DNA of 64,000 nt from Nannocystis bainbridge (GCF_028368995.1 NZ_JAQNDL010000001.1:32001-96000); one strand, 5' to 3'; positions 4,691 through 60,163 are shown, counted from the first letter of the stretch. Program-made: numbers and translations. Notes: generated from the letters alone by a model not told the origin.

Positions 4691-4760
4691 CTGCCTCAGG
4701 GACATGTCGTCGAGAACATGACCCCCAGGACATGCCCATCTCGACATGTCCTCGGATCAG
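4691..4760. repeat. 14-bp palindromic-unit array (about 5 units), intergenic
   Basis: ..GGACA TGTCGtcgaGAACA TGACCcccaGGACA TGCCCatctCGACA TGTCC.. Confidence 0.82.
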
Positions 4761-8292: not shown

Positions 8293-8340
8293 GAAGACAT
8301 GCTCCTTCGGACATGCTCTTTAAACCATGTCCTCACATCA
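8286..8340. repeat. 14-bp-unit array (3-4 units) at the TBDR-PepSY junction
   Basis: TGCTCatgaAGACA TGCTCcttcGGACA TGCTCtttaAACCA TGTCC. Confidence 0.78.
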
Positions 8341-15705: not shown

Positions 15706-15789
15706 TGCCTGTTCGGCCATGTCCTTACCGACATGCCCCTCGGCGCATGTCCCTTGCGGCATGTCCCGACGAACATGTCCCCGAGGAGC
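15706..15789. repeat. 14-bp-unit array (6 units) between the two flippase-like genes
   Basis: TGCCTgttcGGCCA TGTCCttacCGACA TGCCCctcgGCGCA TGTCCcttgCGGCA TGTCCcgacGAACA TGTCCccgaGGAGC. Confidence 0.87.
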
Positions 15790-24098: not shown

Positions 24099-24179
24099 CC
24101 TCGCGGACATGCCCCCGACGACATGTCCCGAGCGACATGTCGCAGTCGACATGTCCCGGTCGACATGCTCCCGCGGACA
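24096..24179. repeat. 14-bp-unit array (6 units) between convergent genes
   Basis: TGACCtcgcGGACA TGCCCccgaCGACA TGTCCcgagCGACA TGTCGcagtCGACA TGTCCcggtCGACA TGCTCccgcGGACA. Confidence 0.9.
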
Positions 24180-33860: not shown

Positions 33861-33871
<11 letters not shown>

Positions 33872-34002
33872 GCATGTCCGTGCAGACATGTCCGCTCGCG
33901 CATGTCCCCTGCGACATGTCCCTGAGGTCCGGTTGCTGAGGCACGCCGCCCTCGCTCGCATGTCCTCCCGGACATGCTCGCCCGGTCATGTCCTCGGCGC
34001 CC
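33861..34002. repeat. 14-bp-unit arrays (5+3 units) at the malK-malEF junction
   Basis: TGTCCgtgcAGACA TGTCCgctcGCGCA TGTCCcctgCGACA TGTCCctgaGGTCC ... TGTCCtcccGGACA TGCTCgcccGGTCA TGTCC. Confidence 0.87.
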
Positions 34003-36155: not shown

Positions 36156-36320
36156 GCCCGATCGGACATGTCCCTTCGGCCATGCCCTATCGGCCCTGTC
36201 CCCGCGGACATGCCCCATCGGCCATACGCTCGACACCCGCGCGCGCCGGCGCCAGCGGCTGGCATGTCCCATCCACCATGTCTTCCCGGCCATGCCCCCA
36301 CGGACATGCCCTGAACGACA
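36155..36320. repeat. 14-bp-unit arrays (5+4 units) at the malEF-malG junction
   Basis: ..GGACA TGTCCcttcGGCCA TGCCCtatcGGCCC TGTCCccgcGGACA TGCCCcatcGGCCA ... TGTCCcatcCACCA TGTCTtcccGGCCA TGCCCccacGGACA TGCCCtgaaCGACA. Confidence 0.88.
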
Positions 36321-36351
36321 CGCCTCACGCTCCCCCCCGCGAGGTGCGCCG

Positions 36352-44420: not shown

Positions 44421-47072
44421 ATGATCGGACCCACGGAGCCTGGCGTGCGCAGCGGCTCGCGCCGAACCTCGCCAGCCGCGCCGCGGGCCGGCTGCTCGTG
44501 CGAGCTGCTGCTCTCGCTGTGCGCCGCCGACTCCGTCCAGGGCGTCCTCTCCGCGCACGGGCTCGACGTCGCCCGCCTGCGCGCCGTCGTCGACGAGCTC
44601 CACGCCGAGGTCGAGACCGAGCCGGCCGACTGGCGCCTGCGGATCACCCAGCGCGGCGGCCGCGCGGCCGATCCCGACCTCGATCTCCTGCTCGCCCTCG
44701 TCCGCTCCGCCGACTCCCACGCCTACCAGCTGCTCGAGCGCGCCGGCGCCGCCTGCGGCGCCCTGCGCAAGCTCCTGATCGACCGCCTGCGCGCGCTCGA
44801 GGCCGCCGCGCTCAATGGGACAGGTCCTTCGCGCCATGTCGGATCGGCCATGTCCTCCGAGACATCCGCCCCGCGGCGCCCCGTCGTCCAGCGCATGTCG
44901 ACCGCCCGGGCCGGCGAGCGCCCGGTCCGGCGCTCGCTCGCCGACGCCCGCCCTGCTGACCTGTCCCCGAGGACATCTCAGGCCGGCGACGCCCCGCGCC
45001 CGACCCGCGGCGGCGCCCGCACCTGGTCCGAAGACCAGGAGCGCGCCCGCCCCGTCCCCGCGCGCCCGACCGACGTCCGCACCTGGCCCGTCGACCACCC
45101 CGCGCGCGTCCGCCTCGACGCCAGCGACGGTTCGCCGGCGCGCGCTCGCCTCGAGCCTCGCACCTGGCCCGAAGACCAGCCCACGCGCGCCCGCCTCGAC
45201 GCCGCCGGCGACGGCCCGCGCGCCCGCACCTGGCCCGAAGACCAGCCCGAGGCCCGCCCCGCTCGCCGCACCGCACGCGAGCAGCCGCGCCTGCTGGCCC
45301 GCACCGATCCTCGCCCCGGACCCGCTACCGCCCTGTCCCCGCGGCCAGGTCCCAACGCCCAGGTCGCGACCGCCGTCGAGCCCGAGCCGCGCCTCGCTCC
45401 GGTGTCGCAGCCCGAGCCGCGCAACCACCGTCTGGCCCCGCTCGACCCGTCGGCCCTGCCGCCGCTGCACGGTCGCGAGGGCGAGCTGGCGCGCCTGGCC
45501 GACGCCGTCCTGCGCCGCTCGCCGCGCCCGCCGCTGCTCGTCGGCCCGCCCGGCAGCGGCCGCACCCTGGTCGCCAAGCACCTCGCCGGCCTGCTGCACC
45601 AGCCGGTCTTCTACCTGTCCGCGACCCGCTACGAAGACGAGGACGGCCTGCGCGCCGACCTCGCCGCCGTCGCCAAGCAGGGCGGCGTCGCCATCCTCGA
45701 CGACCTCGATCGGCTCGGCGGCGACGGCCCGCCGGCGCTGCTCGGCGCCCTCGCCAAGGCCTGGTCTTCGGGACAGCCGCCGATCGTCGCCGTCGCCTCG
45801 CCCGAGGGCCAGGCTCGCCTCGGCGCCTGGGCGCCCGGCCTGACCGCCGCGCTCGACCTCGTCACCCTCCAGCCGCTCGAGGGCGACGACCTGCGCGCCG
45901 CCGTGGCCGCCGCCGCGCCCGCGGTGCTGGCCCAGCATGGCCTGTCTCTCGGGTCAGGTGGCCGCCTGGCCGAGCTCGTGCGCCTGGCCGACCGCTTCCT
46001 CGCCGGCCTGGCTCAGCCCGGCCGCAGCCTCGACCTGCTCGACCTCGCCTGCGCCCGCACCGCCCGCGAGGGCCGCGGCAGCGTCCAGCGCGACACCTGG
46101 ATCGACATCGTCTGCGAGCGCAGCGGCGTCCCGCGCGAGCGCCTCGAGGGCCAGGGCCACCAGGACATGCTCGAGCTCGAGGCCGAGCTCGCGCGCAAGG
46201 TCGTCGGCCACGAGCACGCGCTGTCGGCCGTCGCCCAGCTGATCCGCAGGAACCGCGCCGGCTTCGGCTCGCAGCGCCCGATCGCCACCGTGCTGCTGCT
46301 CGGCCCCAGCGGCGTCGGCAAGACCGAGATCGCCAAGGCCCTGTGCGGGGCCCTGTTCGACCGCCCCGACGCGTTCGTCCGCCTCGACATGAGCGAGTAC
46401 GCCGAGGCCCACGCGGTCGCGCGCATCGTCGGCGCCCCGCCCGGCTACGTCGGCCACGAGCAGGGCGGCGCGCTGACCGACCCGCTGCTCAAGCAGCCGC
46501 ACTGCGTGGTCCTGCTCGACGAGATCGAGAAGGCCCACCGCGACGTCCACCAGCTGCTGCTGCAGGTGTTCGACGAGGGCCGCCTCACCGACGGCCGCGG
46601 CCGCACCATCGATTTCCGCCACGCCGCGATCCTCATGACCTCGAACCTCGGCGCCGGCTGCCTCGACGCCACCGGCGACGCCCGGCTCGACGAGGCCCGC
46701 GTGCTCGAGGCCGCCCGCGCCGCCTTCCCGGTCGAGCTGTGGAACCGCATCGAGGCCCCGCTGGTGCTCCACCCGCTCGGCGAGGCCCACCTCTCCCGGA
46801 TCTGCGCCCGCCTGGTCCGCGCCTCCTCCGACCGCCTGCTGCGCGAGCGCGGCATCCGCTACCGCCTCACCGACGCCGCCACCCGCCACGTCGTCGGCCT
46901 GTGCGGAACGGACATGTCCCTTGGGGCACGTCCCTTGCGACATGTCCTTACGCGCAGCGTCGAGGCCCTGCTCGCCGACGCGATCCTGCGCGGCCAGATC
47001 CGCGCCGGCATGCAGGTCGAGGTCGACCTCGATCACGCCGGCGCGCTGATGCTCCTGGCCTCGCGCGCCTAG
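44421..47072 (+). CDS. ClpA/ClpB-like AAA+ ATPase with a long repetitive linker and degenerate NBD1
   Basis: NBD2 intact (GPSGVGKT, RLDMSEY, GAPPGYVG, LLDEIEKAH, GARPL); NBD1 reads GPPGSGRT/ILDDLD. Confidence 0.88.
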   Translation: MIGPTEPGVRSGSRRTSPAAPRAGCSCELLLSLCAADSVQGVLSAHGLDVARLRAVVDELHAEVETEPADWRLRITQRGGRAADPDLDLLLALVRSADSHAYQLLERAGAACGALRKLLIDRLRALEAAALNGTGPSRHVGSAMSSETSAPRRPVVQRMSTARAGERPVRRSLADARPADLSPRTSQAGDAPRPTRGGARTWSEDQERARPVPARPTDVRTWPVDHPARVRLDASDGSPARARLEPRTWPEDQPTRARLDAAGDGPRARTWPEDQPEARPARRTAREQPRLLARTDPRPGPATALSPRPGPNAQVATAVEPEPRLAPVSQPEPRNHRLAPLDPSALPPLHGREGELARLADAVLRRSPRPPLLVGPPGSGRTLVAKHLAGLLHQPVFYLSATRYEDEDGLRADLAAVAKQGGVAILDDLDRLGGDGPPALLGALAKAWSSGQPPIVAVASPEGQARLGAWAPGLTAALDLVTLQPLEGDDLRAAVAAAAPAVLAQHGLSLGSGGRLAELVRLADRFLAGLAQPGRSLDLLDLACARTAREGRGSVQRDTWIDIVCERSGVPRERLEGQGHQDMLELEAELARKVVGHEHALSAVAQLIRRNRAGFGSQRPIATVLLLGPSGVGKTEIAKALCGALFDRPDAFVRLDMSEYAEAHAVARIVGAPPGYVGHEQGGALTDPLLKQPHCVVLLDEIEKAHRDVHQLLLQVFDEGRLTDGRGRTIDFRHAAILMTSNLGAGCLDATGDARLDEARVLEAARAAFPVELWNRIEAPLVLHPLGEAHLSRICARLVRASSDRLLRERGIRYRLTDAATRHVVGLCGTDMSLGARPLRHVLTRSVEALLADAILRGQIRAGMQVEVDLDHAGALMLLASRA
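46901..46956. repeat. 14-bp-unit array (about 4 units) encoding the conserved GARPL motif
   Basis: ..GGACA TGTCCcttgGGGCA CGTCCcttgCGACA TGTCCttacGCGCA. Confidence 0.82.
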
Positions 47073-53013: not shown

Positions 53014-53096
53014 TGCCCGAATGACATGCCCGCATGGACATGTCCTATCACACATGCGCTTCAGAGCATGCCCAGAGGGACATGCCCGATCGGGCA
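53014..53096. repeat. 14-bp-unit array (6 units) between convergent genes
   Basis: TGCCCgcatGGACA TGTCCtatcACACA TGCGCttcaGAGCA TGCCCagagGGACA TGCCCgatcGGGCA. Confidence 0.86.
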
Positions 53097-60051: not shown

Positions 60052-60163
60052 TGACAAGAGGGCCATGACCGTGAGGTCATGGCCCTTCGTTCATGTCCGT
60101 TCAGACAGGCTCAAAGGGCCATGACCGCGAGGCCATGGCCCTTTCTACATGTCCATTCGGACA
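60052..60163. repeat. 14-bp-unit array (8 units, 2 x 56-bp higher-order repeat) between convergent genes
   Basis: TGACAagagGGCCA TGACCgtgaGGTCA TGGCCcttcGTTCA TGTCCgttcAGACA | GGCTCaaagGGCCA TGACCgcgaGGCCA TGGCCctttCTACA TGTCCattcGGACA. Confidence 0.9.

Follow-up and report, generated by a model that had tools for sequence, protein, structure and literature searches.

The window, a 64,000-nucleotide stretch of one strand of the Nannocystis bainbridge genome (GCF_028368995.1, NZ_JAQNDL010000001.1:32001-96000; positions are counted from its first letter), carries a gene for a divergent Clp/Hsp100-family AAA+ ATPase on the plus strand at 44421-47072. A three-unit array of a 10-bp palindrome in exact 14-bp phase (46910-46947) overlies the GARPL segment of the D2 domain of this gene. 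Comparison of orthologues indicated that the common ancestor of six species acquired the array in place, through roughly a dozen substitutions. To judge from the same alignment, about ten synonymous changes went to rare codons while the residues G-A-R-P-L-R were kept. The array belongs to a family of phased palindrome arrays that appears to be an undescribed genus-wide element. We lean, with some reserve, towards the view that the family is a protein-read DNA signal that spreads under directional pressure and has no role for the Clp gene.

The 15 codons in question encode G-T-D-M-S-L-G-A-R-P-L-R-H-V-L, which is aligned to GYDPVYGARPLKRAI of E. coli ClpB. The codon string quoted in an earlier note on this DNA (GGA ACG ... 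CTT) was located exactly at 46905-46949, in register with the plus-strand open reading frame (ORF). Unit 1 (46910-46919) is GGACATGTCC, agrees with the consensus at 10/10 positions and is read in frame as (G) GAC ATG TCC, that is D-M-S. It is followed by the spacer CTTG (46920-46923), which contains the rare leucine codon CTT. Unit 2 (46924-46933), GGGCACGTCC, agrees at 8/10 positions and lies over GGG GCA CGT CCC (G-A-R-P); its two mismatches are first codon positions set by alanine and arginine, and all three of its free third positions equal the consensus. The second spacer is again CTTG (46934-46937) and contains the rare leucine codon TTG. Unit 3 (46938-46947), CGACATGTCC, agrees at 9/10 positions and lies over CGA CAT GTC C(TT), R-H-V-L. 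Phased positions flanking the array scored far below zero with the weight matrix of the family, and Tandem Repeats Finder reported a period of 14 with 2.6 copies at 46911-46947. The 14-bp phasing that the earlier note had described is therefore real, but its count of about four units has to be lowered to three within 46910-46947.

The earlier note had also pointed to a run of rare or A/T-ending codons in a gene that otherwise prefers G or C, and the counts bear this out. Seven of the 15 codons end in A or T, compared with 46 of 868 (5.3%) elsewhere in the gene (Fisher p 8e-6). The GC content at third codon positions (GC3) of the Clp gene is 94.0%, and seven of its 53 A/T-ending codons fall inside the 15-codon stretch. 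Genome GC3 is 95.1% in confident genes, and CTT, GCA, GGA, CGA and CGT each make up 1-3% of the codons of their own amino acid. Given the peptide, the joint probability of the 15 codons is 10^-15.9; equally extreme 15-codon windows number 389 out of 2,079,135 in confident genes. In the 64-kb window, GACATGTCC with at most one mismatch was found 119 times, compared with 12.0 +/- 4.2 in shuffles.

Orthologues were searched for in 41 genomes, namely the window's own genome (G000) and 40 relatives. Using tblastn with an 85-residue C-terminal segment, the region was recovered from 29 of 30 loci; the remaining one, L024, stops before the region. The codon-level alignment that had been proposed beforehand as a check contained no indel in a 32-codon slice across these 29 orthologues, so the claim that the site shows no length change was upheld. 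Six genomes carry the array (G000, G010, G005, G001, G007 and G003; 91-92% protein identity), with 26-27 of 30 core matches and 7-8 of 15 codons ending in G or C. The non-carrier congeners G008, G002, G006 and G009 have 16-17 of 30 core matches and a GC3 of 14-15/15; they spell L-G-A-R-P-L-R-H-V-L-T-R like CTC GGC GCG CGG CCC CTG CGT CAC GTG CTG. Twelve consecutive residues, LGARPLRHVLTR, are identical between the array carriers and the arrayless congeners. The 18 orthologues of other genera have 10-19 of 30 core matches and keep an LGARP(L/M/V)R core, mostly with GC-ending codons. G004 (85% identity) is intermediate, with 21/30 matches: TTG CGA CAT GTC C is present, which gives unit 3 at 9/10, and units 1 and 2 are not formed.

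Within the array clade, the free third positions in the cores all equal the consensus. Mismatches in the cores are confined to three codon-initial bases, those of Ala GCN and Arg CGN in unit 2 and that of Arg in unit 3. The units stay imperfect because the protein fixes these bases (the G of Ala GCN, the C of Arg CGN). Unit 1 took two amino-acid replacements, Ala to Met and Ala to Ser, so that D-A-A, D-A-T or D-T-S of the congeners became D-M-S. All net core changes were toward the palindrome, from 16-17 to 26-27 of 30, and synonymous changes at the Clp site do converge on the motif as had been supposed. Since no indel was found and the matches are graded (16-17, 21 and 26-27 of 30), the Clp array was therefore built in place by substitution, and the intermediate in G004 reveals the order in which the units formed. 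A second code written on top of the protein code, as the earlier note put it, is thus a fair description of this site, as a three-unit (not four-unit) member of a genus-wide phased array family. Two codes share one DNA: the catalytic-site peptide is fixed, and about ten synonymous positions together with two free residues spell a phased signal in a genome of 95% GC3.

This genome comprises 11.05 Mb in five contigs at 71.5% GC, and GGACATGTCC occurs in it in 956 exact copies, whereas ten control 10-mers have 0-86 each. With up to one mismatch tolerated there are 4,116 hits, and the next hit lay at 14 bp in 602 cases, at 28 bp in 214, at 42 bp in 146 and at 56 bp in 43. Off-phase distances of the same hits were rare (1 at 13 bp, 1 at 27 bp, 6 at 29 bp), and 41 and 43 bp were not enriched. 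The enrichment at 28 and 42 bp means that the phase persists across degenerate units. Pairs of CATG showed the same preference, with 3,736 at a spacing of 14 compared with 66-294 at 11-13 and 15-17, and 801 runs of at least three. A weight-matrix scan gave 1,891 arrays of 2-12 units each. The unit profile is G G A C A T G T C C between two a/t-rich spacers; CATG is present in about 97% or more of the units, and positions 3 and 8 are the most variable, with about 40% variation.

The two-unit pattern, with one mismatch allowed, was counted 1,383 times in G000, 692-899 times in the five closest species, 59-190 times in four others and 9 times in a 64%-complete congener, and is thus present in all 10 congeners. 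Two sister genera have 12 and 5 copies, the 28 remaining relatives searched have none, and a reversed control pattern gave 0 everywhere. An exact two-unit scan over one genome per species (185,579 species) returned 78 stretches, of which 75 come from records titled Nannocystis, Nannocystaceae or Myxococcales and 3 are singletons elsewhere. No Rfam family reached the gathering score within the 64-kb window. Among the papers listed for GGACATGTCC none dealt with bacterial repeats and most concerned p53, and literature searches on Nannocystis found no such repeat; repeat reports from N. exedens lay outside their coverage. In the sister genus G011, the 12 two-unit sites lie in A/T-rich intergenic DNA, several of them directly after stop codons according to ORF calls, and TTTTT follows one of the 12. 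Possibly the element started out at low copy number, as an inverted pair resembling a terminator, and was later expanded in Nannocystis. The graded copy number among living species makes the question of selection or drive, as asked for highly iterated palindrome 1 (HIP1) and for uptake sequences, directly testable.

Gene positions were taken from a simple codon-bias caller, which made 7,957 calls (83% coding). Arrays occupy 650 of 1,307 convergent gaps (50%), 577 of 3,693 tandem gaps and 103 of 1,450 divergent gaps (7%). They start at a median of 24.5 bp past the upstream stop and end at a median of 206 bp before the next start, and some fill an entire convergent gap. Inter-array distances are over-dispersed, with a coefficient of variation of 1.57. 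Although A/T-rich themselves, the arrays become denser as local GC increases (Spearman 0.44): in 20-kb bins, the lowest-GC tenth has 1.15 arrays per bin with 51% of bins empty, compared with 4.3-4.5 in GC-rich bins. The largest array-free stretches (up to 200 kb, and several further ones of 50-96 kb) have 68-70% GC and score poorly with the codon model of the host; they are probably acquired DNA.

About one array in six (310/1,891) lies inside a predicted gene, and these are evenly distributed from start to stop. In 8.1 Mb of confident coding sequence there are 278 arrays, 70 of them with at least three units, compared with 7-8 in three synonymous resamplings, an excess of about 35-fold. Other spacings gave 0-22 arrays in the same sequence. 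Single exact units are also in excess, with 277 compared with 23-29 in synonymous resamplings. GC3 does drop inside intragenic arrays genome-wide, as predicted beforehand, to 0.635 compared with 0.916 in the flanks (272 arrays). This drop is partly circular, since an A/T-containing motif enters the definition of the arrays; the synonymous resampling, with its 278 compared with 7-8 arrays, serves as the non-circular control.

Translated arrays show a recurring 14-residue pattern, D-M-S .. T-(C/G/W)-P .. (G/E)-H-V. Compared with the expectation from composition, the tripeptide DMS occurs 380 times instead of 136 (2.8-fold), GHV 600 times instead of 413 (1.45-fold) and TCP 201 times instead of 118 (1.7-fold). 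In the frame where CATG would give Cys (TGT), the units often have CAGG, which gives Gly. This is the same sort of compromise as CACG for Arg in unit 2 of the Clp array. The arrays thereby generate rare-codon clusters, loop peptides (D-M-S, G-H-V, T-C/G-P) and hypervariable intergenic DNA, which is relevant to annotation and to work in which Nannocystis genes are expressed. Intragenic arrays lie at a median of 2,432 bp from intergenic arrays, compared with 2,745 bp for random coding positions (p 0.056), and the idea that they fill gaps between intergenic arrays was rejected.

We compared four other intragenic arrays, assigned by Pfam to genes for an AMP-binding enzyme, an FGE-sulfatase, an M16 peptidase and an Lhr helicase, each in two close and up to three distant congeners. 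All four lie in length-variable loops or in insertions missing from the distant clade. The insertions comprise at least 16 codons in Lhr and 8-11 codons in the FGE-sulfatase, and the loops of the AMP-binding enzyme and the M16 peptidase vary in length. The claim that sites arise by substitution and not by insertion thus applies to the Clp site and fails as a general rule. The Lhr array (G000:C1:1406230-1406281) sits in a linker insertion between the RecA domains; G009 lacks this insertion, G010 has eight codons more than G000, and the length differs in G001 too.

The 18 arrays of the window were compared with the syntenic 64 kb of three close species. An orthologous stretch could be retrieved for 11 of them, which leaves 7 with none. 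Three of the 11 are of constant length in every recovered relative (the array at 8295, the Clp array, and the array at 4700, in one relative). The others vary in unit number, and nearly every spacer differs while the flanks align at 92-95%. A typical intergenic array of four units (33870-33921) begins on the upstream stop codon; G010, G005 and G001 each have it at the corresponding position, and all of its spacers differ. A 196-bp gap at 36156-36351 holds two arrays in G000 and measures 301 bp in G001; in G010 and G005 the two genes overlap (ATGA), and in G009 and G008 the matching gap is about 75 bp without an array. This array block was evidently gained or lost whole between close species. 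The array at 15715-15780 has five full CATG units in G000; three sister species have there a good unit on either side of two degenerate ones that they have in common. Arrays thus change fast while motif and phase persist.

Three tandem blocks of about 110 bp, each with one good and two degenerate phased units, occupy the gap of 15715-15780 in G001. A few arrays are evident recent duplications, for example the one at C3:1085840. As a general origin of the arrays, tandem duplication was rejected, since the identity of adjacent spacers is only about 5 points above chance.

Adjacent units can in principle form a 10-bp stem with a 4-nt loop. Over 2,471 adjacent unit pairs, the complementarity of partner positions was 0.462 compared with 0.429 for independent positions at one position pair and 0.428 compared with 0.411 at another, with mutual information of at most 0.017 bit; upkeep of a hairpin by compensatory change was not detected in these pairs. 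No T-rich tail was seen downstream, with 14% T in the 30 nt after 294 arrays oriented with transcription. Because covariation is nearly absent and the phase is strict, a signal in double-stranded DNA is favoured. On this sequence evidence, the arrays are most likely read on double-stranded DNA by a putative dimeric protein.

In the mechanism that we propose, a genome-wide directional pressure would promote the palindrome, in its 14-bp phase, at any place where the sequence can accommodate it. Tolerated places would be mostly 3' intergenic space, then protein loops and linkers, and rarely conserved motifs that happen to fit. D-x-x-L-G-A-R-P-L-R-H-V-L would be such a motif, one that could fit all three reading frames of the array, and the Clp array would do nothing for the Clp protein. 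A dimeric sequence-specific protein would bind co-operatively once in each 14 bp, with 120 degrees per step and three dimers per four helical turns. Molecular drive would be likelier than local function, with motif-improving alleles favoured in repair, conversion or DNA uptake. The even spread of intragenic arrays, which do not fill gaps between intergenic ones, the over-dispersion, the GC-linked density and the graded copy number are better fitted by a directional pressure opposed by purifying selection than by a local requirement for every array. The data are compatible with selection as well as with directed conversion or drive.

Several observations weigh against this proposal. The protein that would read the arrays is wholly inferred, and the counts of intragenic arrays depend on a crude gene caller. 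Placement in convergent gaps and near stops is also predicted by a role in RNA 3' ends or termination. The Clp array folds at -31.1 compared with -19.5 kcal/mol, better than 200/200 shuffles (plus-strand z -4.1; minus-strand z -3.8), and there is the small complementarity excess at one position pair (0.462 compared with 0.429). In the atypical array at 60061-60154, the first two units, GGCCATGACC and GGTCATGGCC, are reverse complements of each other throughout, and where one departs from the consensus the other compensates. In the Clp array itself, 5 of 13 synonymous columns vary among the six species, compared with 87 of 490 in the rest of the gene. A/T-ending codons of the array were retained in 34/35 comparisons, compared with 24/65 for the other A/T-ending codons of G000, a comparison set biased toward G000-specific changes; at the low divergence of the six species, 34/35 is no proof of constraint. 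Of the five synonymous changes within the Clp array of this clade, only one went toward a GC-ending codon. The analogy with uptake sequences and HIP1 is also incomplete, as neither is known to need a fixed phase. The block at 60061-60154 is duplicated in tandem, and G010, G005 and G001 retain it together with some of its spacers; in contrast to most arrays, it may be a truly structured element.

A possible but rather doubtful alternative is that the arrays are binding lattices under selection, each serving the chromosome at its own site, such as a roadblock or insulator at convergent ends or a nucleoid or topoisomerase site, and that the Clp copy is locally useful. The strict phase and the near-absence of covariation would suit a protein lattice as well, as would the occupation of half the convergent gaps and the array at 33870, kept after its stop in the same place in four species with all spacers different. 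A weak half-site also tends to stand beside a consensus half-site, since positions 3 and 8 are complementary in 0.346 of units compared with about 0.42 computed by hand from the position frequencies. It is difficult to reconcile a local function with intragenic arrays that are even along genes and no farther from intergenic arrays than random positions, with over-dispersed distances, or with whole array gaps that are present or absent between close species (36156-36351 compared with G010 and G005). A roadblock within an essential-looking domain would have no evident use.

A tentative idea, which we regard as somewhat doubtful too, is that the arrays are a Nannocystis 'self' signal. A co-operative DNA-binding machine would then bias uptake, repair or recombination, and motif-improving alleles would spread by drive. 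If this were true, the genome would be progressively over-written, even inside catalytic motifs. It would amount to an uptake-sequence-like or HIP-like system of new architecture (palindromic, phased and lattice-forming) in a myxobacterium, caught in mid-expansion (5-12, 59-190, 692-899 and 1,383 copies).

It is unlikely that the arrays act as RNA or single-stranded hairpins, that is as elements of the repetitive extragenic palindromic (REP) and bacterial interspersed mosaic element (BIME) kind, as bidirectional terminators or as 3'-end stabilisers, with the intragenic copies as by-products. Their position just past stops and in convergent gaps would suit such a role, as would the stem that neighbouring units can form and the fold of the Clp array. 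Over 20 kb of the window, canonical terminator-like sites show no enrichment (6 compared with 4.4 expected), which leaves the ending of transcripts to something else. The two-unit sites of G011 are flanked by A/T runs, several stand after stops and one is followed by TTTTT. The compensated arm pair at 60061-60154 in four species and the slight complementarity excess at one pair point the same way. However, compensatory covariation is nearly absent even though positions 3 and 8 show about 40% variation, loops of 3 or 5 nt never rise above background, and arrays extend to 12 units. Three intergenic arrays fold just 1.1-2.1 standard deviations better than shuffles, and the T-rich tail is lacking (14% T). 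Single units, which are unable to fold, are enriched in coding sequence (277 compared with 23-29). A small sense-strand asymmetry is compatible with G-U tolerance and is equally explained by a transcription-linked C-to-T bias. The REP-associated tyrosine (RAYT, Y1) transposase profile PF01797, which matched in 6 of 14 genomes, had no match in G000 (90.5% complete).

Two further explanations are very improbable. In one, a rare-codon cluster is selected for slow translation, as a pause for folding of D2-small, and its likeness to the repeat is incidental. Seven rare codons in 15 within a gene of 94% GC3, kept in six species, would fit, but the chosen codons match the genome-wide motif at 27/30 positions in exact 14-bp phase, unit 1 also needed two amino-acid replacements, untranslated intergenic gaps are full of the same palindrome, and congeners and other genera make an equal peptide with common codons. 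In the other, which we consider hardly credible, the Clp array was inserted or copied as a block by a mobile element or ectopic gene conversion and substitution is only apparent. Other intragenic arrays do lie in insertions (Lhr, FGE-sulfatase) or length-variable loops (AMP-binding, M16), and intergenic arrays turn over as blocks; yet the length is equal in 29 orthologues, LGARPLRHVLTR is unchanged from arrayless congeners, G004 has an intermediate with only unit 3 formed, and unit 2 has CACG, on the demand of Arg, instead of the CATG of about 97% or more of units, so that a copied canonical unit would have destroyed the arginine. A look by eye for a conversion donor turned up one other array, at C5:184643, with 18 bp in common with the junction of units 2 and 3; it does not count as evidence of conversion, as about 14 junctions are expected to share a given 4-nt spacer by chance.

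The proposed protein-read signal under directional pressure has its closest parallels in dispersed motifs of other lineages. HIP1 was reportedly the subject of a paper by Elhai in 2015, and its propagation by substitution was reportedly described by Robinson et al. in 1997, to go by the title. Over-representation of the HIP1 type is seen here both genome-wide (956 copies compared with 0-86 for controls) and in coding sequence (277 compared with 23-29). In Xu, Lawrence and Durand 2018 (PMC5861425), selection and biased repair are discussed for HIP1 and selection is favoured. HIP1 (GCGATCGC, cyanobacteria) is similarly a short palindrome over-represented in one lineage, found within and between ORFs, fitted by codon choice, and debated between selection and biased repair. 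In contrast, the Nannocystis unit is the 10-mer GGACATGTCC, stands in strict 14-bp arrays of up to 12 units near stops and in convergent gaps, and has a myxobacterial host.

DNA uptake sequences (DUS) are frequently found in terminators as inverted pairs. Two copies of a palindrome in tandem likewise make an inverted pair, which adds to the likeness. The uptake signal sequences (USS) of Pasteurellaceae and the DUS of Neisseriaceae resemble our family in having hundreds to thousands of lineage-specific copies and in raising tripeptides (DMS 2.8-fold in G000). They differ in that they are asymmetric and unphased and their frames correlate with preferred codons, whereas the Nannocystis motif forces rare codons. 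According to Findlay and Redfield 2009 (PMC2817400), uptake-sequence copies in coding regions raise the tripeptides of the motif about twofold; these sequences lie preferentially at poorly conserved residues, are missing from homologue-less genes or atypical DNA and accumulate in place once the DNA is resident. Uptake sequences were reportedly also the subject of a paper by Treangen et al. in 2008. The genomic footprints found here are of the uptake kind, as tripeptides are enriched, low-GC DNA is poor in the motif and the Clp site was built by substitution.

REP and BIME sequences, which are mobilised by RAYT, are likewise palindromic clusters, extragenic at 3' ends and in convergent gaps, in hundreds of copies. 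The Nannocystis arrays share the extragenic, 3'-proximal and convergent-enriched placement, though 310 of 1,891 are intragenic. REP and BIME units are imperfect, 20-40 bp long and of alternating orientation, whereas the Nannocystis unit is a perfect 10-bp palindrome in fixed 14-bp phase. About one-sixth of our arrays being intragenic, the almost complete lack of covariation and the lack of a RAYT match in G000 set them further apart.

Rickettsia palindromic elements are 100-150-bp in-frame insertions in protein genes, mostly in surface loops. The arrays of the Lhr, FGE-sulfatase and AMP-binding genes resemble such translated elements, and those of Lhr and the FGE-sulfatase do add residues. The Clp array differs, as it adds no residue in 29 orthologues and overlies a conserved catalytic-site motif. 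The met-boxes of MetJ are tandem 8-bp palindromes bound by co-operative dimers, a handful per genome, at promoters. They share a palindromic unit placed head to tail in fixed phase. The Nannocystis arrays differ in number (about 1,900), in their 14-bp period and in avoiding divergent (promoter) gaps.

A candidate reader was sought through the 17 two-unit loci of the sister genera G011 and G013, with Pfam searches of 21 neighbouring G011 ORFs, and no recurring neighbour was found. Among the neighbours of G011 sites, CAP-domain proteins turned up twice, whereas a NikR-type regulator, an integrase and an HNH protein were each seen a single time. Titles cited in PMC6868368 mention chromosomal repeats resembling multicopy single-stranded DNA in N. 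exedens. A link to retrons was not supported by the five reverse transcriptase (RT) matches in G000: the two non-intron RT genes have no ACATGT upstream, at the expected place of msr/msd, and have only ordinary 3' arrays downstream. The other three RT ORFs (L109, L110 and L111, at G000:C1:3394425, C2:1697652 and C3:907422) are identical and encode 636-666 amino acids. The single copy that was scanned, L109, has matches to group II intron RNA families (RF02003, 8.4e-17), and we take all three as putative mobile group II introns.

The longest stretch without arrays, G000:C1:1098834-1299353, spans 200 kb and contains 104 predicted genes and 20 convergent gaps. Its GC content is 68.9% compared with 71.5% for the genome. 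It is probably a large acquired island.

The Clp host gene is an ORF of 883 codons that starts at 44421 or 44445. Its product has a long disordered N-terminal part, a weak D1, and well conserved D2 and D2-small regions. Pfam gave AAA_2 at 1.4e-51 (residues 619-778) followed by ClpB_D2-small at 2.7e-13 (residues 786-868), and in a comparison with solved structures ClpB chains matched at 2.6e-73. The NCBIfam equivalog models matched partially and below their cut-offs (TIGR03346, ClpB, 338.6 of 1232 bits; ClpA, 296 of 993; ClpV1, 266.6 of 885). From these matches the gene is judged to be a divergent paralogue with a degenerate D1. GTDMSLGARPLRHVL of the host protein aligns without gaps against GYDPVYGARPLKRAI in solved chains of E. 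coli ClpB. GARPL of its D2-small corresponds column for column to GARPL of E. coli ClpB, and GARP is invariant in the 29 orthologues. The GAR of this segment presumably contributes the sensor-2 arginine. The gene sits in a plus-strand gene run that ends at a convergent gap with an array at 53022-53087. Another convergent-gap array, of five units, lies at 24105-24170.

The Clp gene contains a second intragenic array at 44818-44855, in the disordered N-terminal linker. Its units, GGACAGGTCC, CGCCATGTCG and GGCCATGTCC, encode T-G-P..R-H-V..A-M-S. All six close species retain it; 7 of 30 core columns are variable compared with 8 of 12 spacer columns, as read by eye from the alignment. Its 4-nt spacers differ at up to 4/4 bases, which alters the encoded residues. 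Elsewhere in the gene, at 45760-45780 and 45935-45960, stand the few other A/T-ending codons that all six species conserve (TCT..GGA and TCT..TCA GGT, respectively), and these coincide with the motif-like fragments TCTTCGGGACAG and CATGGCCTGTCTCTCGGGTCAGG. These fragments may be decayed or nascent units.

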